Origin: Schmidtea polychroa
Lineage: Eukaryota
Length of the DNA stretch: 64,000 bases
Assembly (NCBI GenBank): GCA_044892525.1
Contig: CM097887.1
Coordinates: 97,132,397 to 97,196,396 of the forward strand
Direction: 5' to 3'
Shown: piece after piece, positions 11,901-63,894 of the stretch
Numbering within the stretch: the first letter of the stretch is position 1
Layout of the letters: every line of letters begins with the position of its first letter
Position numbers and translations under genes: made by a program
Notes under the pieces: generated by a model
Databases searched by the model: none
What the model was told of the DNA's origin: nothing
Seen by the model: the letters and a program-made list of their open reading frames with translations, nothing else

Positions 11901-12488
11901 TCAATTGAATGCAATTCTTTAAGGGTTAACTATTTTGTTATTTTTAAATTTAAGCGACATTTCCCAGTTTATTACCTTTTCTAAGCCCCTTGGTTCCGAA
12001 ATTTCAACTGCTGCTTTTATGGTGGAAAGCAAATTGACAACTGTATAAACCGATTGGGCACCACTGTTTTTCATTTTCACTTTTGAAGACAGTCTCCCTC
12101 GCCGACCTTTCAGACTTTCTTTTCTGACAACTAATTATGCATCACAAATAAATTATCAATAGGACATATTAATATATATATATATATATTTCAAATTTTG
12201 GGAATTTTATCAAATGTTGTTTAGATGTAAAAAAAGATTTGTTTATCCTTATAAATCTGGGAAAACATTATACAGTAAGGATTTATTAAACATTTGTCCA
12301 TCAATAAACATTAGAGGATTTAAATAATTCTTAGGAGGATACAGTAAAATTTCAATTATCTGTTGGATACACATTTACATTTAGAACAAAAATGGACAAA
12401 AGTTAAAATAAAAGAATTATATATTGGGAAAACTTTGAATTTAAAAAAGTATTTAGAAAAATATTTTCTTTTTACAAAAACTTTTGTT

Positions 12489-12574
<86 letters not shown>

Positions 12575-13197
12575 TATTTTGCTGCAATAAAATTTATTTC
12601 GGTACATTTCACTTATTGTTTTTTTCATTAAAAATTTCATTTTATCATAGAATTTCAAAATTTTTTGATTGCACTCTGGACCGCCGTAAAATAATTTGAA
12701 ATTCCCCGATTTACACTGTAGATTGATTCCGTAGAAAACCATGTAAATCGAAATTAGTATTTTGTATGAAAATCGTGTAAATTGAAACAATTTTATAAAA
12801 TTCTTAATTTAACACTAGAACTACCAGACCAATCAAAATGACTGGTTTTACTTTTTATCATTAATTCATCATCAATTTTTTATTTTTTTTATGAATTATA
12901 TTATGACTTTTCTAGTGATACATATATGTTTATTATAATGAATTTTATTTTGCGTTTGCTTAATTATAGAAAGTTTTTTTTATTTCGGCTACTAGTTCTA
13001 CTGTTAATATATGATACTGATATTTTTTTAAATGTAGATATTCAAAATATTTTGTTGTAAAGATGAATTCACATTTTGATCTGTTTTATATTTATATTTT
13101 ACATTGTATATGATGATGTGGTTTAATATATCTTCATGATTAATAGAGGAAGATATAGATTCAATAAAATTCTTCAAATAATAAAAATAGCAACAAT

Positions 13198-13266
<69 letters not shown>

Positions 13267-16200
13267 TATGAGGAAGTTTTATGATGAAGAAATTTTTAAA
13301 TTGAAAATTTTAAAAATTAAATTTTAGAATATTTACTGATATTTACTGAAATAAAATTTATGGAAACAAAAACTGATTTTAATGTTTTACAGGATGAACA
13401 GCCTAATATGGTGGCAGCGGTAAACACTGACGCAATCACCGAAAGATTGCTACCAAAGGTATTCTGCCAAGGTGACGACTTGGAAAAGTTCATTAAAAGA
13501 TGCGAAATTTATTTCGACGCCAAGGGAATCACGCAGAAGAAAGATCAGGAAAGATTAACATATTGCATGATTGATGAGGATCTCCTGGAAGTGTACACTG
13601 AAAAAAGCCGAAGGATTCCAGGCTAGGTTGCGATTGGCATTCGATCGCGAAAGAGATGTTTTAAAGGATCTACAAAACTTGTTGAATTACAAGCGGAAGG
13701 GTGAAGAAATAGAAACGTATTTTAAAAAGGTGGAGGACCTTGTTGATAGGTTGTTTGAAAATAAAGAATTTACCAAAGAGAAATCAACAGCAAGGATGTT
13801 AATAGTATGTGCGGAGAATAAAGAAGTGGAGAAAGAAGTGATACTGCGGAAGATAAAAAGCACAGAAGAAATAAAGGAAACACTAATTCTGATGGACAAA
13901 GTAGACAAGCAAAGAGATCAGATAAACAGTATGAAAAGTTACGCCAGAGTGGTCTATCAGGAACCACAGAGAAGAGTACAATACAAGAAGAAAGAACAGA
14001 GAGAAGAAAGTATCCGAAGAGAAATGCCAGAATGCTGGTTATGCCACAAAATAGGACACACGAAAATTGATTGTCCAATAAAAGGTAAAATAGAATGCTG
14101 GACATGTCATAGAAGCGGACATATAAGTAGAAACTGTCCAGATAAAAAAGCTCCAAGATGTTTTGGGTGTGGGAAAGAAGGTCATATAAGAAGATTGTGT
14201 CAGGAAATACGTTGTGAAAGATGTAGCAGAAATGGTCATAGATCCGAGGATTGTTATACAAAGGTGAGGTACGGGAGAGCGACGGAGAGACAAAGATTCA
14301 CGGGAAACAGATACAGTCGGATAAATGGTATCGAGGAAGAAGAAGAAAGGGAATCGTGTGTAGAGACAAATGAAGATAATTTTAGGAAGACGTACCCAAA
14401 CAACAGGGCTCCCACCAGTAGAGGAGTTGGTTGGAGCCATATTCTAACAGAAAATTTGATGGGATATCCTCAAGGGGCAGAAAAGTGGGAGAATGTTGGA
14501 AGGGTAAGCGAGAAAGTATACAGGTTCCTAAAGAGAGAAATGTTTGAAGAGGAAGTGGAAAGAATTGGAACCATTGAAACGGAGCAGGTTGTTGAAATTT
14601 TGTATAACAAAATGCAAGGAAGGCCTAGTATAACAGTAAGGATGAATGGGGAAAATTTCGACTGTTTATTAGACACGGGTGCAAGAATCAATGTAATGAG
14701 TGTGAACTGTTTTAACAAGCTACGAGGACAACAATTGACGAAAAGTGACGATAAGTTACGATGCGCAAACGAGAGTACGATCGAGACAATAGGAAAAACG
14801 AAGGTGCAAGTAACCATTGGAAATGTTTCGAAGGAAGTTATATTCATTGTGGCGGAGAAAGTGACACCAGATGTGATTGGAGGAATCGAATTACAAGAAA
14901 CATTTGGATTTAGACTGTTAAAAATTAAAGATATCGAGGATAGTGAAAAAGACAAGAACTATATTTGTAACATTGAAGCAAAATTTGGCAGAAAAATAAA
15001 GGATGAAGAACGATTGATACGAGCGTTGGAACAGTTAAAGATCAATGAAGATAGCAAATTAAAGGAAATTATAACAAACAGTGGAAACGTGTTTATGGCA
15101 GATAAATGGGATGTGGGTCGCACACATTTGGTAAAACACAAGATAGTTACAAGAGGTGAGCCGATAAACATAAAACCATATCGCCAACCACTAAATTTGG
15201 AATCAAAGATTGAAGAAGCAATACAAAATTTGTACGAAAATGGAATTATACGGAAATGTAACTCTCCATGGAATACACCGCTAATATGTGTATGGAAAAA
15301 AGAGAAAAAGGATATTAGACTATGCTTGGACTTTAGACAGCTGAACGCGGTAACAGAGAGGCAGGCATTTCCAATGCCAAACATAGACGAGATGTTGGAT
15401 TTGTTAGGAGGATCCGTCTTTTTCAGCTCAATCGATCTAGGTAATGCATATTACCAAGTGGAACTAGAAGAAGAATCACAGGAGAAAACAGCTTTCTCAA
15501 CAAAGAACGGACAATATTGTTTCAACAGAATGCTGTTTGGAATTGCTGCAGAACCAGGTACGTTCCAAGAAATGATGACAAAATTATTAGGCAAAATAAA
15601 GGGAGCAATGGTGTATTTGGACGACATCTTGATTTATTCAAGCAGTAAAGAGAAACACTATACAATACTCGGAGAAGTGTTAAAGCGATTGAGGAAGCAG
15701 GCATAAGGATTAATCCAAAAAAATGCCACATAATAAAGGAAGAAATCAGATTCTTAGGACACATAATCAGCAAGGAAGGAGTACAGACAGATCCATCTAA
15801 AATTCAGTCCATACAGAACTTTGGGAAGCCTAATTGCGTAAAGAAACTCCGAAGCCTTTTAGGTATTTGCAATTATTATAGAAGATTCATCAGTGATTAT
15901 GCAAAGAAGGCAAGGATGTTAGAACAATTATGTAGCGGACCAAGTAACAAAAAATTAGAATGGAGTGAAGGAACGAATAGCGTGTTTGAGGGATTGAAAT
16001 TTGCACTCACGACGGCGCCAATCTTATGTTTTCCGGATCTGAAAAAGGAGTTCATTTTAGATACCGACGCTAGTTTCGATACCATTGGAGCAGTACTTTC
16101 ACAAAGAGATAAAGATGGAAAGGAAAGAGTAATTGCGTATGGATCACACTCGATGACGAGCCACGAGAAAGGATATTGTATTACAAGAAAGGAACTATTG

Positions 16201-19200
16201 GCGGTATATTATTTTTGCATTCATTTTAAGCACTATCTCTACGGAAGAAGATTCACGCTCAGGACAGACCACAAGGCAATCACGTTTATGATGACAACCA
16301 AGAAGCCGATTACTTCACAATTCCAAACATGGATCAATTATTTGAGCAGTTTAGATATAAGAGTAGAATACAGAAAGGGTATTAATCACCAAAATGCAGA
16401 CATGGTGTCGAGAACTAAATGTGACACGTGTGTTCAATGTCAAATGGCCCACGAAGAAGCTAAGAAAGGAAAGATAAAAACAAGATTACTAGACTCGATC
16501 AGAGAAGAAGGAAGAAGCAACATCCAACATGGAATTGTAGAAGAAGTACGAAAGAAAACGATGATACCTGAAAATGAGTGACAAGAAGCTATAAAGGAAA
16601 TACATAGACTATTGTGTCATGCTGGCGTCGAGAAGATAGCCGATTATATGAAAGATAGATATGTTGGAAATCACCTGTGGAGTCAGATTCAGGAAATTGT
16701 TCGAAGTTGTGAGATTTGTCAAAAAACCAAGGCTTTAACAAATACAACGAAAGAACCAGTAAAAAAACAAGATTCGAAGGAAATGTTCGAAATTATATTC
16801 GTGGATATATGTGGACCGTTGACAGAAACAAAAGGACGTAAGAAGTATATATTGGGCATAATAGATCAGTATAGTAAGTATCAAGTCTTGACAGCGATAA
16901 CAAAACAAGACGAAGAAACAATAAAGAAAAAAATAATATAATAACATTGTGAAATAATAGTGAAATATATATTTGTCTTTATTTCTTTCCAGACTAGAAT
17001 ATTATTTTGATTTATATTGTTTTAATTGATAGAAATAATTTTAATGTCTCGATTGTCTTTGATCGTTTCGGAAGTCAACTCCCAGCAGTATATTAAATTT
17101 TTTGATATCACAATTATTATAACAAAGTTTAAAATATCTGTTGTCTACATTTTCTCACAATAACAGAATTTAAATTTATTTCTGTATCTGAAATTTAATC
17201 CTCTCAGTTTTCAGTACAATTTCCTAATCTTACTGGACTTAAATTTCTTTTTATCTAGATAAAATTCTTTCTTTTCTTTCTATCTTTGCGACATATTCGA
17301 AAATAATTTAGTGATTATTATCTGTGTTAATTATTCATTTTCTCCAATCCTTTAAAACGAATATTTATTATTACTTTTTTCCTTTCCTACACATCGATTT
17401 TTTAATTTTTAGTAATGATAACTTGTAGTAAAATCTTTGGTTCTTTTCACCATTGTTTTTTTACATCTTCGATTTCTTTTATCTTTACTTCAAACTATAA
17501 ATCAATCTTTTCATTTATTTCAAACGAATTTTTGACACAGCCTTTATACAACAATTTATAAATGTTTTAAAGCTTTATAGGATTTTATGTATTCTAATTT
17601 TGTCGAAATAATTTTTAATTGTTATTTTTCTTTCCTCTATTCCAGGGATGAGCTAGTGTGGCTCTTTGATGAGGTGTGTGGCACTCATTGAGATCTGATT
17701 TTATAGTAAATATTGAATATGACAATATGTTGTGGCTTTTTGTAATACAGGGAAAACCTGTATTTGACTCTCAAGGACCTCATGCGTGCCCACCCCTGCT
17801 CTATTCGTTGGATTTAGAGAATAATTTTCACACAAAGCAATTTGACCACTATGTAGTCCCTTGAATACATTTAGCGGAAATGTTTAAATTCGTTATAGTT
17901 ATATTTTAATATTAAAACTTTTTAAAATCTTCACGATATTATATTTTAAATTTATTTTCTATTAACAAACATTTGTTTTAATCTCAGACAAAATCAACTT
18001 AAAAAACAACTTACTTTCTTTCACCATTCCTACTTTGATACATTTGACATATCTGCAGAATTGACATCTGTTGCGATTCTGCTTGTCAATGACACAGTTC
18101 TGATTGTGCAGACATACATAAGTTGCGCTTGCATTTTTTTGTATTGTCCTCTATTAAGTTTTTTTATTATAGTGGGAAATTAAATAAATATTAAAAATAA
18201 AATTGATACAAAAATACTTTTATATTATTAATATTTTAATTGTTTGAATTTGGTTTTGGAAAATTATTCATTAGATGTTTCTATTAAAACAACATTCATT
18301 TCCCATTGCTCATATTTAAACTAATTCATATTTAAGCTACATCCAATGATTATAAGTCTTTATTTTACATCATCCTTAAAAGTGAATTTATTATTCCAAT
18401 CTTCCAACTATATTTAATATAAATAAAGAAAATATCAAAACACATTAAATTTTATACGAATATTATATTAGTCTGTAAGTCTTGCACAATCATTTGCATT
18501 TACAAGATTTGGCACCATTAAGCTACCTTTTGTTCAGATCAACGGATCCTTTTTATAGGGAAGAAAAAGTATTGGAAAGTTTTAAAAATGATATTATTTC
18601 TCTGTTCTAAAGTAAAAATCGTAAGAAATAGGAATTCACTATTTTAAAGATATACATAAAATTTGTGTGACACNNNNNNNNNNNNNNNNNNNNNNNNNNN
18701 NNNNNNNNNNNNNNNNNNNNNNNNNNNNNNNNNNNNNNNNNNNNNNNNNNNNNNNNNNNNNNNNNNNNNNNNNNNNNNNNNNNNNNNNNNNNNNNNNNNN
18801 NNNNNNNNNNNNNNNNNNNNNNNNNNNNNNNNNNNNNNNNNNNNNNNNNNNNNNNNNNNNNNNNNNNNNNNNNNNNNNNNNNNNNNNNNNNNNNNNNNNN
18901 NNNNNNNNNNNNNNNNNNNNNNNNNNNNNNNNNNNNAAATTAAAAATTGATTTATTAAGGGGGGAAAAGGTATGTGGCAATGTCAAATGACGAGAGAAAT
19001 AAGAATAAAACATTATAAAAATCTGTGGGGATCCCCAGAAAAAGATATTCAATAAATACAAATAATACAATAAATACCAAAAAAAACTTAAAGAAACCCA
19101 AGCGATAAATGACAAAAATAATGAGATAAGTCTTTCTTAAAATTAAATTAGCTGAATAGAGATCTTGGACAAAAGGTCACCTGCTCAATTGTTTTGACTT

Positions 19201-22200
19201 GAGAGATGTTGTAGTCTTATTTAATTATTTCGTTTTTGAACATTTTTAGGAGAAAAAATTATAAAAAAAGCCGGAACACTGGTGGCCATTGGTAAGATGG
19301 TTTAATATAATATTTGAAATAGAGTAATTCAAAGAATATTCAAGGAGAATAGAGTGAAGTTAGTTAGTGAATCAAGTCAATTAAATATGTACCAGAAAAG
19401 GCGGTTTTCCTTTGGAAATACTTACTTTATCATTTTCTATTTGAAGTGCAGATAAAAGTAAAATTTATTTTTGACAAAATTGTTAAAAAATTATTGTGAA
19501 ATTAAACAAAATGTATAATGTTGGATCTTATTGTTTTAATTTAATTTTTATTTTTAATTCAATAATATTACTTTAAAAAATCCTTTGCACCCTTCACAAG
19601 ATTTAACTCCATAATGCTGACAAGATGCAGAATCTCCACAGACTAAACACAATTGGTCGTCATTCATATCTTCGTTGTCACTGATGATCATAGTTTCAAT
19701 TTTATTTTCACTATTATTCTGGGATGATGTCGAAGATAACTGTGACAATTCCGGTGAAAACTTTGTCGTACCAATTTCATGATTTTGTGATATAATATTT
19801 TCATTTGGATTCATGGCAATTGTGTTATTCAGAATATTAAAGGCATTATAGTTTGTGAAATCCGTTTGCGCTTGTTGATATGTAACTGCATTATCGAAAA
19901 TACTGTCGGTTTTAATGAAAATCGGAACGCAATCTCGTTCAATGCTCTGACTGTCTTGGATAAGAATTTGCGTTCCAATAATTGGAATTTCATTTAAATT
20001 TTGAAAATTGACATTATTTTCAATTCCTTTGCTGAAAAAAATTTCCGAAAATAAAACAATTCTCAAAATGTAAAACTCTAGTTTAATATAAATAGATAAC
20101 AGAAAATATTTACAGTGGCGTAGCTAGAAATTTTATGCCCCCTATACTGCATACACAAGTGAAATAGGTGCGGACCACCATAGCGCCGCAGGTAAAAAAT
20201 TTCTTGGCCCCCTTTGGAAGCACAATTGAATTAGACCAGGGTTTCCCAAACTTTTCCTGCGACGGAACACTTCGTAACTCTCGAAAATTTGATGAAACAC
20301 CTTGTTTATTTTGTACAGTATGAGACCAGTGGCGTAGGCCTACCCAAGATTTTTTAAGGGGGAGGGGAGAGTGTTAATTGAAAGAAGGGCTTATAGTTAC
20401 ATAGGAGTTTTGCGCCGCAGGCAAAACATTTTTTTGGGTCCTCTTTGGAAAGATGATTTAATTAAAAAATTAGAGCTCAATATACAATATAACAGTATAA
20501 ATCGTTATAAAATGATAGTAATGTATCAGGGACAAATGTGTATAGCTGACAAGCGAAACAATTTTTTCGACCCCTATATGAATGGGCAATTTACTTAGAT
20601 AACCAAAGTTGCTTGCTTATACAGTATATTATTAGCGAGGGAGAGGCAGAGGGGATTGCATAAATAGGTAAAATGCAGGTAAATAATGTACTTAATGTAA
20701 TAAGTAAACAAAACAGTATAGCTTTATTACATAAAACCACAAATCGATCATTTGGAGGTCCCTGCTGACTGGTGCCGACCGTGCCGTTGTTTGGCATTTT
20801 TTTCTGAAGAAAATAAGGGAAATTTGGAAAAAAGGCCCCCTGTCTTGTGGGTCCCTATGCATTGCTTACTCTTGCTATATGGTAGCTACACCACTGAATA
20901 TTTATTTATCAATACAAAATGTGAAATTTTCCTTTTTTTGAAATTGTTGATTTCTTTACTTTTTTTTACTTTTCTGTTACTAATTTCTTCAACTTATATG
21001 TTTTTATTGAGAAAGTTTTAAACAATAATCAAATTAATAAAAAATTATTTATAAAGTGAAAATTTGTTTAAATTTTTAAATATGATATAATGGAGTAAAT
21101 TGAATATTACTATAAATTAGCAATTATATACGACTATCTGTATGGTTTAGTGAGGAAGAAAATACGAAATTTGTTTAAACGAATTGAAATTTTTAATAAA
21201 ATAATCAAAATCTTATTAATAATAATCCTTAACTTTCACAAAGAATATAATTAATAATTAAAATCATTCGAATATTTTTAAATATTAAATTATAAAACCC
21301 CAAATAAAACCTATAAAAATTGTTATAATAAATTTATTTACCGGTCGAATATTTTAACAAATATTTAAAAGTAATTCCTATAACTAGAAAGTAGGCAATT
21401 ATTTAGTAAGTAGTTCTCGTTTATTTATAGTCAGACATTGCATGTAAAAAGTTTTTTTTCCAAAAAAGTATCTAATCCTGCGCAAATATGAAAAGGTAAA
21501 CCCATTTTATGGATAATTATTCAATTGCGCAAATTCGTTAATACAATTTTAATTGAATAAATTCAAATTACGATTTTTTTCCCTCCAATTTTTTATTTGA
21601 TTGATTCAGTAAGAAAAAAGTTATTAAAAATTAATTATTAAATTTAAATTCCATGCAGGCAATTTTCAGCTGGACATGGAAAACTATCTAGTCCAAAAAT
21701 GATAACGAATCACTTATGACATTTAACCAGTTTTGCCCACAATTAAATAAAATTCTAGAAAGATATACATTTCTAGTGGGTTGTTGTAGATTTTTGTTTA
21801 AATATTGACAAATCAGATTTATTTATTCCTTCAAAATTTCAAGGAGATCGCATCGGTCTTGCATTTTCATGGCAGTTGATAAGTACATTTTTGTAATGCT
21901 AGCACACAGACAAGAAATACAGTTCATGATTCACGGACCTGCAACAGGATTTTACTTTAAAATTAATATCAGAAAATGGCAATTTTTTAGACATAGGTTC
22001 TATCAGGTCATCTAAATTTATACTTTGATCTTTTAATTTGTACAAATTTGATGGTTCCCTGTAAGACATAACTCTATTCTTGTATATAATTATTATTTAA
22101 CTTTATTTATACATTATGCTCGCGATCATATAGTCCTAAAATAAATATTATTTTTAATTGAAAAATTTTAATTTCTTGAAATCAAGCACAAATTCAGAAA

Positions 22201-53697: not shown

Positions 53698-54532
53698 CTT
53701 ATATCAACATTTTTCAACCGCTGGTTCGCGAGCTAATATTGGGTCGCGAAAAAAATAAAAGTGGTCCACGTACAAAGAAAAGATAGATTTTTGGTCCGCC
53801 TTACGTTTTGGGTTGAGTAACACTGCGTTAGATAATTTAAAGACGGGCAAATTGGAAATATGTCCATAACATAAGAGGTCGAGTATTTATCTCTGTTTAA
53901 TGGGATACTATTATGTAATAATTAATGTGCAATATGAGATATGATTCAGATATACAGTAATATACACAGTGTAGAACTGGGTTGGTCGAATTAAAGGCTA
54001 TGGGGCCGGCGATATCTGAACTATCAAATCATCATATATTTTTTCTGATTTAAAAAAAATAATACAATATATTAGATATGGCAATATTATACACTAAACA
54101 GTAAATGTCTGGAAAACAGTTTAGAAGAGCTAAATTACTATTGAAATAGCACTAACGGCTACAGTGTCAAATTTAATGGAAAAATTAAATGATTCAATGA
54201 AAAGATAGGACCACTTAAAAATCTATGCAAGATATATAGTATATAGTAAAATCTTATTTTACACGGTCTTTTTTTACACGATTTTGAAATAACACGGTTC
54301 GTCAAGAATATTTATTTTGCATATAAATTTGTTTTAACATTCTACACAAGTATTTTGTGTACGTAGTTTTTCTAAATTGAAAAGTATAAAAAATAGACTC
54401 TTCGTTGTCACGAGGTAATTTGCAGATTTTGATGCTTATAATGATAGAGAAGGATATTTTAGTCAACTGACATACCTACAAAATGATAGATAAAATAAGT
54501 TAAATGCTTTGGAGTAGGTAGAAGTGAGCCCA

Positions 54533-54975
54533 CGATGACTCATCGTTAAGGTCAACTTAAGGTCAAATTTTAAGGTCAATGTCATTTTCAGGTCAATTTA
54601 AGGTCAATTTAGGCCATTTTAAGGTCAAATTCTGAGGTCAAAGTCGATTTTAGGCCATTTTAAGGTCAAATCTTGAGGGCAAAGTCGATTTTAGGCTATT
54701 TTAAGGTCAACTTTTGAGGCCAAAGTCTAATTTTTCCAAATTTAAGGTCAAATTTTAAGGTCATAGAAAATTTTAAGGTCAACCCCCTACCCCCTACCCC
54801 TAATTTTAAGGTCATAGAAAATTTTAAGGTCAACCCCCTACCCCCTACCCCTATTTTTAAGGTCATAGAAAATTTTAAGGTCAACCCCCCTACCCCCTAC
54901 CCCTAATTTTAGGGTCATAGAAAATTTTAAGGTCAACCCCGCCTACCCATAATTTAAAGGTCAAATTGAGGTCAA
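54533..54975 (+). repeat. Array of ~19 (TTA)AGGTCA motifs in nested ~41-bp and ~51-bp tandem units, preceded by the palindrome CGATGACTCATCG
   Basis: Counted by eye. The 51-bp unit TTTTAAGGTCATAGAAAATTTTAAGGTCAACCCCCTACCCCCTACCCCTAA occurs ~3.5 times (54753-54950). One perfect AAAGGTCA at 54956-54963. Confidence 0.9.
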
Positions 54976-55056
54976 AAATTAAAAATTTTCTAAGTCCATT
55001 TAACGAATTACTTTATAGGAAATTTTCAAAGTCAAAACACGTTTTAATACTACGTT

Positions 55057-55140
55057 TGCAAATGTCTTTGTTACTCATGCATATGCATTGCAAATGTCTT
55101 TGTTACTTATGCATTTGTATTGCATATGTCTTTGTATTAC
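55057..55140 (+). repeat. 32-bp tandem repeat x2.6
   Basis: Unit TGCAAATGTCTTTGTTACT(C/T)ATGCAT(A/T)TG(C/T)AT. Confidence 0.8.
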
Positions 55141-55686
55141 ACACCTTAAGGATAGAAAAATATTTCTAAGCGAGATCTAAAGTGAATGTGTGTAAAGGGC
55201 AATAAATAAGGGTAAAATCAAAATTTTTTAAGAAAATACATGTAATTTGATTAAAATTTATGAAAACTATATATATATATTTGTTTTATTTTAGGCAGAT
55301 AATCTATGTGTGTCTGTATATGAAAACATTGATAAGGAGCAATAAATAAGGGACGGTTTTACTCACACACAAGTTTTATATCAATCGAAAGTCTACTATA
55401 TATAATACATAATTGAATCGAATCAAAATAAGGGCAAAATCAAAAATGGTAAAATAAAATGTTCATTATCAGACATTTTAAAAAATATATTTTATTTATT
55501 TATTTTAAATAAAAATATGTAATTATGATCATAGTTAATTTAAGCACATATTTATTTCACTTTTCACAAAATAATTTTAAAATACCACAACGTAATATAT
55601 TTTCTATCTTAATTTTAATTGGCTGGAGAATAAAGTATGCTTTTCATTATAAACATTTTCATTATTACGAAATAACTTTACAGATA

Positions 55687-56240: not shown

Positions 56241-56616
56241 CAGTACTCGAAGTGAGGCGGGATAGCCGGGATATTATCCCGGCATTGATTATGTAGGCGG
56301 AATTGCATCCCGGCACTTCATTTCATATAATCTATAGGTTTATCCCGGTACTTATTTCATTTTATAGGCACACAAATACTGCAATTAAGGTCACACATAG
56401 TACATCCATATATGTATGTATATATATATTCTTTATTCTCTATTCTCTATTCAATTAAGAATTTCCCAAGCAGCAGTAATGGATAGGTAGGTATTTGTTG
56501 GACACCCCCCAAAGTTTTGCAACACCCCCAACTGAAAATTTCTGCATAAAAGCCTGGAATCCCGGGTGCCACAGCATGCCTATCCCGGCACATATTTTGT
56601 TCCACTTCGAGCACTG
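56241..56616. mobile_element. 8-bp-TSD DNA transposon MITE (hAT- or P-like)
   Basis: CAGTACTCGAAGTG ... CACTTCGAGCACTG; TSD ATTTTATT on both sides; repeated TCCCGG subterminal motifs; an empty-site paralog lies at ~57015. Confidence 0.88.
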
Positions 56617-57858: not shown

Positions 57859-60800
57859 ATGGAAAAATACTATTTAAGAAATTATTATAATAAAAAATAT
57901 TATTTATGCCCGTTTTGCGAAGCTCTTTTCACTAAGCCCTATGAAATATTTTATAATGATCACAAAGATCATCTTACATATTTTAAATCGGATAAAAAAG
58001 AATTTTTTAAAAAATTATTTAATAACGGTATAATAGACGTACCTACTAAAAAACAAAAACTTAATGATAACATCATCATTATAGATGAATCTGATGATGA
58101 TGTTATCGTTATAGGTGAATCAGGGAATTTTTTAAATTATCAAATTGGTTGTGGATCAACTAATATGATAGAAGATATTGAAGAATCAGTGGAAGAACCA
58201 GTGGAAGAACCAGTGGAAGAACCAGTGGAAGAACCGGTGGAAGAACCGGTGGAAGAACCAGTGGAAGAACCAGTGGAAGAACCAGTGGAAGAACCGGTGG
58301 AAGAACCAGTGGAAACGGAACAAATAGTAGAAGAGGACAATATATGGGATGATTTCCAGATTGTTAATGAATGGGAACCTACTGAAGAAGTCGAGATTGA
58401 ATCTGACTTGAAAAATTGTCATAAAACAATTAAAATGTCGTTCAAAAACATGAATGAGATAAATCTACACGAAACTTTCTCTGAGAAACTATTATCTACA
58501 ATCAAGGAGATGAAAACTGTGAAAGTTCAATTCGGGATAGAATGTGATTTCGAAAAAGATGGAGAATTCCAATCATCAAGATTTTCTAACAAAGCGGTGA
58601 TGGTAACTGAGAACAATTTTGAAAAGTTTATTGCAGATGGTATTGAAAAGCTGCACGAGAAAATTCATATCAGATCGTCTGATAAGAATAATTGAAATAA
58701 ATTTCAAAATAACTAAGATTTCCGAAATATCCAGATTATCCGGAAGAAATTATATTCCAACTCCGAAAGCCTTAATAAATAAAAATGCATTAATAAATGT
58801 GATCAATGGAGATGATATGTGTTTCATATACAGTGTGCTAGCCAATTTGAAAAAAGATATCATTATGGCTGATAATACAAATGTTGAAAATTATACACAG
58901 TTCTTGTCCGAATTGGTATATAATGAATTAGATATGCCAATGAAATTGAAGGACATTTCAAAATTCGAAAAGCATAACGAAGGAATTGCTATCAATGTCC
59001 TCAGTTACAATCCTAAAAATATGATTGATATCGATAATGTGGATATTATAATGAAACATCCACATATTGATATAATACATCGGACTAAAGTAACTGGGGT
59101 TACACCGATGTATTTACTATTGTTAGAATCGAATGGCCAATACCACTATACTGCAGTTCCAGATTTACAGCGATTAATGAATTGTAGAAAAACTCATAGT
59201 TGCCCAGTCCGTATTCAATGCAGATGGTGCGAGACATGTTTAAATGGTTTTAGAAGAGAAGATGCTTTTGACAGGCATGTAGCTTTATGCAAGAAAAACC
59301 AATTGGGCACAACATTATACACGTTGCCAGAAATCTCAGATTTAAAATTTAATGACTGGTCAAAAATGGTAACTCCGCCTTTTGTTATATATGCTGACTT
59401 CGAAGCTGTTTTACCACTTGATGAAAGACAACACCAAAAACATTTACCTATAGCAGCGGGGCTGTTACTGGTAAATAATTTTACTGGGTCAACGAAATAT
59501 AGTCATTTTATTGGACCAGATTGTGTATACAGATTTCTGATGGATGTAGAAAATATTGTCAACAATATAGTGAAGGTTTATTATAAGACAAGAGGGCATT
59601 GTCAAATGAAATTTTTGACAAATCAGGAAAAGCTGCAATTCCACACAGCAGTCAATTGTTACTTGTGCAAAAAGCCAATGCCAGAGAAAGTGAAAGACCA
59701 TGATCATTTCACTGGCAAATATCTCGGAGCCTCATGCAATGTATGCAATCAACAAAGGAAAATCAGAGAAACATTACCCATCGTATTTCATAATCTGAAA
59801 GGGTATGATCTACATCACATTTTGAAATATGGGCTCAATCAACTTCCTCATTGGAGTCTCAGCTGCATACCAACAAGCACAGAGAAATTTTTAACATTGA
59901 TAGCATGGCTGGGTAAATTTACAATAAGATTTATTGACTCATATCAGTTTGTCAATACTTCATTACATAATGCAGTAAAAACATTGAACGACTTGCCTTT
60001 GACCCGTTCAGTATTCAATACTGCAACCATCATAAACAACAAAGGAATTTTTCCTTATGATTTTGCCACAAGTGAGGAAATATTAGAAACAACATATGAA
60101 TTTCCCGCTATTTGGGAAGGCGTTACAAATGAAGAGTATATAATAGCGCAACAAATATGGCAAGAAACAAGTTGCGAAACTCTAATGGATTATTTACAAA
60201 TTTATTTAAAACTTGATGTGTTTTTACTTGCCGATTTCTTCCAACAATTTCGAGCAAGATCAAAAGCACATAATGGACTCGAGCCACTCAATTTTTTTGG
60301 AATCCCTGGAATGTCTTGGGCATCTGCGCTCATGACCTTAGAAGAACTACTGATGAACTACTGATGGACATGGAGATGTATAATTTCTTCGAGGGTGGGA
60401 TCCGTGGTGGTCTCACATTTGTAAATAAACACTTCGCTGTAACAGATGATGAAACAGAGTTGCTTTATATTGATATAAACAACCTGTACGGGTGGGCGTT
60501 AAGCCAATACTTGCCATGTAGCGATTTTGAGTGGATATATAATGAAGTGGAATTATTATCCATTTTAGTTGACTGTATTAGTTCCAAACTAGAAAATTTA
60601 ACTTATGGATACACATTGGAAGGTGATTTAGTCATCCCGTCTAATATCCACGATCTATTAGACGATTTCCCAGTCGCAGCAGAGAAAATGTGTCCACCAG
60701 ATTCCACTGTACCAAAATTATTATTAACCCATTATGCGAAAACTAATTATGTTATTCATTGGAGACTTTTGAAATTATATATGGCCCTCGGAGTGGAAGT

Positions 60801-61747
60801 CACCAATATACATCGTGCAATAAAATTTACACAAAAGCCGATATTGAAGGATTATATCAACACAAATACCCAACTTCGAGCTGAATCACAAAATAGTTTA
60901 GATAGAGATTTTTATAAACTTTTAAATAATAGTGTTTACGGCAAGACAGTGGAGAATCTGAAGAAAAGAATAAATCTGAGATTGTGCAACAATGCCGAAA
61001 AATTGGTTAAATACACTTCAAAGCCAACATTTAGACGTTCAATTAAAATTGCTGATGATTTAATTGCCCTTTTGCTGAATAGATGTAGTTTGTTTAGATA
61101 GGCCTAGCTACATTGGTCAAACAGTGCTAGACTTATCTAAACTTAGAATGTATGAACTACAGTATATTGAACTGTCAAAATATCGAGCACAGTTCAATTG
61201 CCAAATAAATATCATAGCCGGGGATACAGACTCATTCTTCCTCGAATGTAAATATGTCAAATTGCGATCACAATTACTTCCTGCAATGATTGCTGACGGA
61301 TTGTTAGACACCAGCAACTACGATCCTACAGATCCATTATATTCACGAAATTTGGATTCTGTAATTGGGAAATTCAAGGACGAAAACAAAGGCAAATCAT
61401 ATCAAGAATGGGTATTCCTCAGACCCAAATGCTATAGTTTGCTAACTTGTGATAATGATACTATAAATAAAGCCAAAGGTGTATCATTAAAGGGAACAGA
61501 AATCACACATCAATCGTATGTGGATTGTTATCTTGGAATGCGTATACCGAAGGTGAATCAATCCCGGTTTGGTACACGAAACCATCAATTATTTACATTT
61601 AGAACTAAGAAGGTAGCCCTTACAAATAACGATGATAAAAGGGTTTGGGTTGAAGAGAACAAGAGCTTCGCATATGGGCATTATAATATTTTAGATAATG
61701 AATTAAATAATATTTTGCCTCTTGATGAATCATCTGCAGACGAATGA
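57859..61747 (+). pseudogene. pPolB: Protein-primed family B DNA polymerase (Polinton/adintovirus type) split by three frameshifts
   Basis: ORFs 57859-58695, 58619-60364, 60316-61101 and 61124-61747. Exo I YADFE, Exo II FHNLKGYD, Exo III YLKLDVFLL; pol motifs YIDINNLYG, KLLNNSVYGK, GDTDS, LRPKCYS, KAKGV, DDKR; endonuclease-VII-like insert KDHDHFTGKYLG. Confidence 0.93.
58189..58308 (+). repeat. 12-bp coding minisatellite x10 encoding (VEEP)10
   Basis: GTGGAAGAACC(A/G) x10, in frame within the PolB N-terminal ORF. Confidence 0.97.
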
Positions 61748-62266: not shown

Positions 62267-62609
62267 TTAACAAAGATGTTTATACATTAGCCAAGCTAGA
62301 CAATGTTGTCCACAAGTATTTGTTAATGGATGTTGAAACCGAGTTTTATTGTAATCAACTTGACCAATAATTGATAGCTTTTTGATCAATAGGGCTGGAT
62401 AGTAAAATCCCATTGGATCGAAAACATATATTTTATTCTGCTTCACGTAGACTGCAATCCAATGTTCTCCTCCCAGAGTAGACGAATCTGTGTTGACAAT
62501 TATGGCTTGATTCACATCTAAATAGGGGATTTTGTCTAGTGGGTACACTCCAACAAACTCATTAATTATATTTGAGTACCAATTCGATTTATCTGAATAG
62601 AACTAACAT
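62267..62609 (-). CDS. Adenain-like (C5-type) cysteine maturation protease of the Polinton; probable frameshift near its 5' end
   Basis: FVGVYPLDKIP, IVNTD....GEHW, VFDPMG, FQH...TCGQHC provide the His/Asp/Gln/Cys catalytic set. The in-frame ORF lacks an ATG; the nearest ATG (62609) is out of frame. Confidence 0.85.
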
Positions 62610-62673: not shown

Positions 62674-63894
62674 TTATACCAGCACAGTTCTATTTGCAGT
62701 AATTTGAACTTCATTTTCAAATACTCCATATATAATGACATGTAACGGTTCAGTAATGGCTCTTGCAAACTTTATATCCAGTCGTAAATTCCCGTTTTGT
62801 GGTAATTGACTCTGATTTAAATCAAAATCGGGGGCTAAAACAAATGTAAAAAATGGGTATTTGGTTTTAAATTCTTCAAGAGTTATTCCACAATTTAAGT
62901 TTTTATCTAAATAACCCAAATTTCTAACAATACTCTGCATATATGTAGCACAGTAATTATCACTTTCAAAATCTTGAGTATATGTTTCTCTATAATCAGT
63001 ATTTTTAGACAAAGTCAGTGATGTAACACCAAAGTTTTTGAAAATTGAGCTGGATGTAGTATATGATCCGTTATATTGAGTTTCACTTTGAAATGTTATC
63101 AGGATAAAATTAGGCATTCTTCTGTCACCAAATATTTGTTCTTTATAGAATGATGAAGCACCTTTAGCAATAGCGAATTGTACAATTTCCTTTGTCTTTA
63201 ATGGATAAATTGCATGTTTTGAATTAAGACCCCATTGATGACCAGCTAATACTGACGGGTCTACTCGAACTCTTCTCACCAATAATTTTGCATCAACTAA
63301 TTGACATATTGGTGCACCTGCACTAGTAAGAGATAATGCAGAATCTGATCTTTTCAGTCTAATATGTACATTAACTGCAGGGAGTAAATATTTCGGCTGA
63401 TCCATAAAGTCGAGTTGTAATGATGAGCACATGGTGAATATTTTTGAGCCTTTAACCCACTTTTTTCTTTCATCATCTGATGCTGCATAACCCATAGGAG
63501 TAAGACATGTATTTTTAGTATCGGAATTGTAATTTAAAATAGTTTCTATCAAGGCCTTGTGAATGAATGTATTATTTCCACCCTCAATCTTGATATTATT
63601 AAATCCCAACACTGCATCTTTAAAAAGAGTATGAAACATGAAATTGTTCGGTATTACATCTGCATTGGCATCCAAAACCTTTCTATCTTTATCTACAACC
63701 TTGATCTGAACAGTCAATAATGTATCGTTCAAATCTAAATATTCAGTTTGCGAACCATTAATATAAAACTCGATATCATTTCTACTATCGGTAATTGAAT
63801 TCATAGGAAAAACTTCCTCAAAGGCCCCAAATTCTATTACCGCTTGAGGCGACGGTCTATCAAATATACATAATTCGGATTTACCACAAATCAT
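62674..63894 (-). CDS. Polinton/adintovirus major capsid protein (double jelly roll, 'hexon'), intact 406 aa
   Basis: N-terminal KSELCIFDRPSPQ...IEFYI.GS..EYLDL and C-terminal GNLRLDIKF...IIYGVFENEVQI match the Maverick MCP pattern; lies next to the protease gene. Confidence 0.88.
   Translation of the reverse strand: MICGKSELCIFDRPSPQAVIEFGAFEEVFPMNSITDSRNDIEFYINGSQTEYLDLNDTLLTVQIKVVDKDRKVLDANADVIPNNFMFHTLFKDAVLGFNNIKIEGGNNTFIHKALIETILNYNSDTKNTCLTPMGYAASDDERKKWVKGSKIFTMCSSLQLDFMDQPKYLLPAVNVHIRLKRSDSALSLTSAGAPICQLVDAKLLVRRVRVDPSVLAGHQWGLNSKHAIYPLKTKEIVQFAIAKGASSFYKEQIFGDRRMPNFILITFQSETQYNGSYTTSSSIFKNFGVTSLTLSKNTDYRETYTQDFESDNYCATYMQSIVRNLGYLDKNLNCGITLEEFKTKYPFFTFVLAPDFDLNQSQLPQNGNLRLDIKFARAITEPLHVIIYGVFENEVQITANRTVLV

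Follow-up and report, generated by a model that had tools for sequence, protein, structure and literature searches.

The DNA analysed here, a 64-kb stretch of the Schmidtea polychroa genome (the window), contains an AGTAG start, an AP-1 palindrome and a run of nuclear-receptor half-sites that all point the same way. The first-pass annotation read this as a putative viral terminus acting as an origin or enhancer under host nuclear-receptor and AP-1 signalling, and pointed to an NR4A gene nearby. The locus raises two questions: what the array belongs to, and which host factors, if any, it may serve.

AGTAG marks the start of the left terminus at position 54513 of the window. A direct count bore out this start, the TGACTCA palindrome, the approximately 19 same-strand AGGTCA hexamers and the perfect AAAGGTCA at 54956-54963, all as the annotation had described. 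The features concerned, and a further repeat in the inner TIR, are:

54533 to 54545, no strand assigned: AP-1 palindrome CGATGACTCATCG, with the core TGACTCA at 54536-54542, 6 bp ahead of the first half-site.
54549 to 54974, forward strand: half-site array in which AGGTCA occurs 19 times, always pointing inward and in 15 cases as TTAAGGTCA.
54956 to 54963, forward strand: NBRE-type octamer AAAGGTCA, one copy in the left array.
55056 to 55135, forward strand: 32-bp repeat, 2.5 copies, in the inner TIR, containing CTTTGT and ATGCATATGCAT words, which we take to be Sox-like and POU-like.

Spacers between the half-sites of the left TIR are 5, 7, 11 and 12 bp and longer. The remainder of the window contains seven AGGTCA on the forward and six on the reverse strand. 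The suggested comparison with shuffled sequence was run on 54513-54980 (dinucleotide shuffles, n = 1000, both strands) and gave a mean of 0.33 AGGTCA and a maximum of 3, against the 19 observed. Part of the array was built by tandem expansion of a 41-bp unit (x3.8) and a 51-bp unit (x3.7), so the 19 sites do not represent 19 independent origins.

Polintons/Mavericks are recognised by long TIRs starting AG and by a 6-bp target-site duplication (TSD). Both are present here, on an element of 17,049 bp (G000:C3:97186909-97203957). Its parts within the window are:

54507 to 54512, no strand assigned: left TSD copy CTTTGG, 6 bp; the right copy lies directly after the element end at G000:C3:97203957.
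54513 to 55191, forward strand: left TIR (family A), approximately 680 bp, with patchy similarity to the right TIR until about 55348.
57859 to 61747, forward strand: protein-primed type B DNA polymerase (pPolB) region, PF03175 in two ORFs, split into four ORFs here.
62267 to 62602, reverse strand: adenain-type cysteine protease frame, 111 amino acids stop to stop, PF00770 (Peptidase_C5), E 6e-7, above cut-off.
62674 to 63894, reverse strand: double jelly-roll major capsid protein (MCP), 406 amino acids, structure model pLDDT 89.

The two TIRs have AGTAG ends and are identical at 690 of 708 aligned bases. An inverted copy of the array, proposed as a check on the terminus, was found at the right end with 17 sites. 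Foldseek searches with the capsid model returned iridovirus and PBCV-1 capsids (E 1e-16 to 1e-14, TM about 0.6); a PDB sequence search with the capsid profile returned no matches. The integrase comprises an rve domain (E 1e-7; 32.5 bits, cut-off 32.6) and a chromodomain, its frame being interrupted by a microsatellite, and the packaging ATPase was detected as Pox_A32 (E 1e-6). With TIRs, TSD, pPolB, integrase, ATPase, adenain-type protease and double jelly-roll capsid all found, the element is a Polinton/Maverick and the annotated terminus is that of a viral element. Animal Polintons/Mavericks (adintoviruses), as described in the accessible portions of PMC6431247 and PMC8502044, have in common with it a length of 15-25 kb, TIRs, pPolB, rve integrase, A32/FtsK ATPase, adenain and double jelly-roll capsid; Bcl-2 homologues were previously known from adintoviruses (same portions of PMC6431247 and PMC8502044).

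On the reverse strand, L031:6130-6751 contains pieces of a Bcl-2-like gene in which BH1-like and BH2-like words occur. The pieces lie behind CCAAT and TATA-like boxes and are oriented towards the right TIR. Among nine family-A loci checked, the BH1-like frame was present in all nine and the BH2-like frame in seven. The ORF is a weak match, with a Pfam E of 0.002 (below cut-off) and a BCL2A1 E of 0.002 that ranked behind designed PPR repeats. The element also contains a TBP-like gene (L031:3760-4251, forward strand; Pfam TBP, E 2e-13), which a stop breaks in the focal copy and which is open in five other loci read (L032, L035, L041, L046, L047). A MITE-like insert of approximately 375 bp with short inverted ends (by eye) lies inside the element at 56241-56616.

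The family-A terminus pattern gave 87 matches across the genome, 21 of them as inverted pairs under 60 kb. A sample of 31 loci was read, of which one (L017) was dropped as it had no terminus. The array was present in all 30 TIRs examined, with 15-47 sites each and none reversed; these loci were the best DNA matches to the query and include duplicates or overlaps (L004/L007, L013/L020, L005/L027, L009/L010), and are thus neither unbiased nor all independent. Recurrence in other copies, a further check named by the annotation, was thereby confirmed. The AP-1 core stands 5-6 bp ahead of the first half-site in 26 of the 30. Perfect 6-bp TSDs flanked all seven end pairs compared, two of which are one duplicated locus. 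The near identity of the copies and their perfect TSDs suggest recent activity.

The 5' extension of the 708 family-A sites was TTA in 561, TTG in 68, CTG in 37 and TAA in 3. TRAGGTCA fits 679 of the 708 and AAAGGTCA only 3; the latter is a variant of the focal copy (at both ends) and of one other TIR, and not a family-A feature.

Paired TTAAGGTCA matched 1,514 times genome-wide, against 2 for the reversed control. Twenty further pair loci, taken among the first 100 matches listed and away from known family-A termini, were examined and 19 lay at Polinton-type ends (AGTAG-type end by filter in 12 and by eye in 1; blastn match to Polinton-type TIRs in 6). The remaining locus (L381, G000:C1:14.51 Mb) is a small TTAAGGTCA/TGAGGTCA cluster at which no Polinton-type end was recognised. 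Membership of an unrelated satellite or MITE found genome-wide away from Polintons had been named in the annotation as a refuting outcome. It was rejected, since 28 of the 30 family-A TIRs are continuous with the focal interior and 19 of the 20 other pair loci are at Polinton-type ends. The receptor array is genuine and characterises Polinton ends throughout the family.

A search with the ATPase returned at least 150 copies at 97-100% identity, mostly away from family-A termini. These belong to a second end family, B, with 2,507 terminus matches, whose TIR gave no blastn match to the family-A TIR. Family-B TIRs carry TGACTCA followed by inward-pointing arrays of TCAAGGTCA with an 18-bp period plus direct runs; TCAAGGTCA accounts for 212 of 240 sites and AAAGGTCA for 16. 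In many of these TIRs the array begins 500-700 bp inside.

Family C (78 termini) had arrays in all eight TIRs read, two of which are duplicates, and 3-8 tandem composites of AP-1 and half-site in six of the eight. Its arrays begin within about 45-90 bp of the terminus, compared with 36 bp in family A. The TIRs of families C and A are 71% identical over 87 nt and have an 18-nt stretch in common. Some family-C elements (L321+L363+L364, L365+L366) are gene-less palindromes of 14.7-15.4 kb, flanked by 6-bp TSDs and bearing composites of AP-1 and half-site in tandem. Two such bodies were tested against eight focal proteins by tblastn without a match, and they carry 20-36 sites per strand.

Family D is represented by a divergent element (L046, G000:C3:130097830-130111640) that is nested within another of family-A/B-like type. 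Both 1.6-kb TIRs of the family-D element contain a copy of the same gene, and its pPolB and MCP share 54-73% and 64% identity with the focal proteins. Each TIR has at its inner edge, 1.4 kb away from the terminus, a cluster of AP-1 and four half-sites, three of them AAAGGTCA. The cluster points outward along the TIR-borne gene, away from the body, and stands approximately 100 bp ahead of the TATA-like box of that gene. This is the location of a putative promoter and not of an origin. The matching promoter of the focal element contained no AGGTCA.

Family E (117 termini) lacked the array in 11 of 12 TIRs examined, and GGTC-containing words (GGGTCT, ATGGTC) are frequent in its TIRs. The twelfth locus (L324:783-1241) has a cassette of family-C type behind its family-E terminus, either by cassette transfer or as a nested truncated insertion.

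AP-1 stands 3-7 bp ahead of a half-site in all four families A-D. The suggested search in related Mavericks found AP-1 followed by AAGGTCA in three further Polinton-type end families. The only words common to five arrays at three or more copies were AGGTCA and AAGGTC; three of the five regions (C, D and the 38-bp arrays) had been picked because they bear AGGTCA, so the comparison shows that flanks differ and did not find the core blind. Spacers vary across families (0, 5, 7, 11, 12 and 13 bp) and the 5' extension is family-specific, a pattern that would be expected of monomer binding. Comparison with a relative of 75% identity (L377) gave differences at 4 of 48 half-site positions and at 19 of the 77 others (Fisher p 0.03, with an alignment anchored by the repeats). 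Against family C the figures were 1 of 24 and 14 of 54 (p 0.03, with an alignment that is possibly not homologous). Recurrence of AP-1 with half-sites in unrelated or distantly related TIRs favours a function. The arrays of families A, B and C may nevertheless descend from one ancestral unit, given the 18-nt stretch common to A and C; recurrence would then be retention and not independent origin.

Scans of viral_contigs with the ATPase and capsid alignments found no relatives outside this genome. Among the matches listed for a triple AAGGTCA in viral_contigs, none of 80 loci with flanks matched any of eight focal proteins, and most look like coding repeats. In 63 metagenome loci with capsid relatives no cluster of three or more AGGTCA was found; none of these was seen to reach a terminus, and they are silent on TIRs elsewhere.

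Family B provided a comparison of ends with and without the array. The first 100 termini listed included 51 on the plus strand, of which forty were taken by position, with their content unseen. Twelve TIRs held the receptor array, 21 an alternative array, none both and seven neither. Receptor-state TIRs contain 12-24 AGGTCA and alternative-state TIRs 0-3, and TGACTCA is kept in most TIRs of both states. The alternative array (L032:6750-7660, L043:4177-5650, L051) has a 19-bp unit made of TAGAACGATG plus TTACGTAA/TTACGTCA words, and is presumably bZIP-like. Over the 2.3 kb adjoining the TIR in 16 copies, the states differ by 0.85%, against 0.71% and 0.81% within states, with no fixed difference. 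The state label required 4 changes on the body tree compared with 4.5 for shuffles and was not clustered; the tree has only three well-supported branches and is compatible with one origin per state.

Perfect TSDs were found for 25 of 28 family-B end pairs. Fourteen of these elements were alternative at both ends, eight receptor at both ends and three mixed, where 11.8 mixed elements would be expected under independent ends. These counts indicate that family-B ends are mostly homogenised and that whole ends are sometimes exchanged. The mixed insertions (L273/L339, L297/L354, L304/L360) have perfect TSDs, one end in each state and different terminal 28-mers. In 14 of the 25 TSD-verified elements either end holds only 0-3 AGGTCA, and the array is thus not needed for copying or insertion.

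The first 30 bp of family-B ends occur in many combinatorial variants (L035:3247-3380, L032:6750-6870, L051). In the copies read by eye, a variant word is mirrored by an inverted copy approximately 110 bp inside, a possible fold-back at the origin. One locus (L035/L036, G000:C4 7.82-7.83 Mb) is a palindromic derivative with ATPase and TBP genes in both arms, and several close inverted ATPase pairs suggest further derivatives of this kind.

The units of each array consist of a half-site with a consistent 5' extension per family and variable spacing, which would suit receptors of the monomer type only; a fixed DRn dimer code was rejected because the spacers vary. TRAGGTCA is the optimum of thyroid receptors (TR) and AAAGGTCA is the NBRE, the element of NR4A. 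We take TCAAGGTCA of families B and C to be an SF-1/FTZ-F1-type element. Exact sequence matches to monomeric nuclear-receptor elements thus make up 679/708 sites in family A (TRAGGTCA), 212/240 in B (TCAAGGTCA) and 3/4 in D (AAAGGTCA). By this measure the candidate readers are a thyroid-receptor-type protein for family A, an NR5 protein for families B and C, and NR4A for family D. In the host, 53 zf-C4 exon matches were obtained; among the 30 read were EGCKG, ESCKG (NR5), NR4A-like and two-DBD types, and no EACKA. Receptors with two DBDs, a pair of NR4A-like genes, low GC and four large contigs would suit a planarian host. As a monomer, schistosome TR-alpha shifts a half-site probe containing TAAGGTCA (PMC2045677, available part), and schistosome FTZ-F1 binds an SF-1 element (PMC8673669, available part).

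The annotation had also listed ERR and ROR as readers. S. mediterranea has neither, and has three TR, two NR4A, FTZ-F1 and HR39 (PMC11637366; PMC8363021, the latter in its accessible part). ERR and ROR were rejected as readers on the assumption that the host has the same receptor set. The ERR site, or ERRE, is TNAAGGTCA (PMC10484738, accessible part); as S. mediterranea is without ERR, this site possibly has no reader in the present host.

The neighbouring NR4A-like gene was examined in the window:

11919 to 19700, reverse strand: host NR4A-like gene exons, with DBD exons (zf-C4) at 19554-19700 and about 17962-18150 and a GRRGRLSSK exon at 11919-12134.

GRRGRLSSK is presumably an NR4A motif. 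The gene lies approximately 35-45 kb from the array with an otopetrin gene in between, and a Gypsy-type retroelement (gag-protease-RT-RNase H) occupies 13300-17000 in one of its introns. The chance of an element lying within 45 kb is 5-10% for one given gene and approximately 76% for any of 27 receptor genes, estimated for approximately 917 array-bearing termini under uniform placement, with the 12/40 fraction extrapolated and the S. mediterranea number of 27 genes. The annotated gene is real, as its zf-C4 exons show, and its proximity is what chance would give. A special link of the arrays to NR4A was not upheld: AAAGGTCA makes up 3/708 sites in family A and 16/240 in family B, and is a conserved unit only in the family-D cluster (3/4).

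Direct observation established the position and orientation of the array, its recurrence at both ends, the AP-1 plus AAGGTCA core in four families and the exchange against a bZIP-like array. The array is part of the TIRs at both ends and probably serves as an enhancer cassette that responds to host factors and can be exchanged. Its AP-1-led homotypic run of 5'-extended half-sites would be bound by monomeric nuclear receptors of the host, which together with AP-1 would open the element ends in particular cell types or states, or after stress. Early genes close to the TIRs, the Bcl-2-like gene among them, would then be activated, and excision and copying may be licensed too. Whole ends would be exchanged by recombination between elements and subsequently homogenised end to end during protein-primed replication. 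Planarian Polintons acquire H3K4me3 and RNA in the course of differentiation, and their derepression is tissue-specific; the accessible part of the same study ascribes tissue-specific transposon activation to the chromatin of the surrounding region and not to element-borne sites (PMC8532177). Two observations speak against an enhancer cassette. Two gene-less family-C bodies keep large arrays for which transcription of own genes cannot select, so that copying in cis or mere inheritance has to be invoked. Most family-E TIRs examined (11 of 12), as well as family-B TIRs in the alternative state, have spread without the receptor array. The host-control proposal of the first-pass annotation is accordingly kept in part: the terminus was right and control by host factors is plausible, while the required origin and the tie to NR4A were wrong.

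An adenovirus-type origin with required sites was rejected, as the distance of the array from the terminus ranges between 36 bp and 1.4 kb and both ends of 14/25 TSD-verified family-B elements lack it. A milder form, in which the array is an auxiliary enhancer of replication or excision and host receptors with AP-1 open the terminus for the element polymerase or integrase, appears unlikely overall. It would be compatible with the cassette reading, the alternative bZIP-like array doing the same job in other cells. The closeness of the array to the terminus in families A (36 bp) and C (about 45-90 bp) agrees with it, as does the retention of large arrays in gene-less family-C palindromes. The 20-36 sites per strand in the two bodies tested speak for a copying or excision role or for plain inheritance. 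NFI and NFIII sites likewise enhance replication in adenovirus ITRs (PMC5717082, available part). The 14/25 TSD-verified elements without the array at both ends argue against a replication enhancer, as do the arrays 500-700 bp inside many family-B TIRs and the family-D cluster, which is 1.4 kb inside and faces a gene.

That the arrays are a neutral by-product of slippage or unequal exchange in repeat-prone TIRs, matching receptor sites by chance from one ancestral word, is improbable. Tandem units of 18, 38, 41 and 51 bp do expand and contract freely (15-47 sites) and whole element classes lack the array; yet the 7-mer core persists across families while spacers, periods and extensions change, AP-1 precedes it in four settings of which one is a gene promoter, and the alternative array also consists of factor-like words (TTACGTAA, TTACGTCA). 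Rather less probable again is that the repeats are bound by a protein of the element itself (integrase, terminal protein, TBP-like or unknown ORF) and only look like receptor sites. Inward-pointing subterminal repeats are typical of transposase sites in DNA transposons, which counts in its favour together with the frequent GGTC words of family-E TIRs. Nevertheless, GGTC occurs 0-7 times in alternative-state and 12-28 times in receptor-state family-B TIRs whose bodies are 99% alike over 2.3 kb, and no zinc-finger receptor-like ORF was present among the focal ORFs scanned. Feedback on, or co-option by, the neighbouring NR4A gene is very improbable: the distance of 35-45 kb and the single AAAGGTCA per end of the focal copy are set against its rarity in the family (3/708), the intervening otopetrin gene and a proximity expected by chance.

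A likeness to the proposed enhancer cassette is found in the U3 enhancers of retroviruses and LTR retrotransposons (e.g. MMTV), in which variable, recombining repeats of hormone- or tissue-factor sites set the cell type of activation. Here the element is a DNA element with inverted ends, and the half-sites are of the orphan monomer type and not steroid palindromes. Adenovirus ITRs are about 100-150 bp long with single sites at fixed places. The Polinton arrays differ from these in their 15-47 homotypic sites, variable spacing, dispensability and exchangeability. Adenovirus ITRs are likewise terminal repeats of protein-primed linear DNA with host-factor sites (NFI, NFIII/Oct-1, Sp1, ATF) serving replication and transcription (PMC5717082, in the part available). 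The literature searched, which comprised few subscription papers and neither Repbase nor supplements, yielded no description of such half-site arrays in Polintons, nor of composites with AP-1 or of alternative cassettes in their TIRs; adintovirus supplements or Repbase may mention TIR repeats.

For the question of what activates integrated Polintons/Mavericks, and in which cells, the ends described here name candidate host factors. The hundreds of near-identical family-B copies that differ in their cassette form a built-in control, and the two-state slot makes the question of activation testable. Should binding occur, the array-bearing ends, estimated at roughly 900 with 10-40 half-sites each, would constitute a large pool of receptor sites dispersed over the host genome, as possible enhancers or sinks. 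We suggest, tentatively, that Polintons in this genome might partition host cell types by means of exchangeable terminal enhancer cassettes of TR, NR5, NR4A or bZIP type, always with AP-1, swapped by recombination between co-active genomes. Were this so, the family of about 1,250 young copies would be a natural two-allele experiment on the trigger of Polinton activation.
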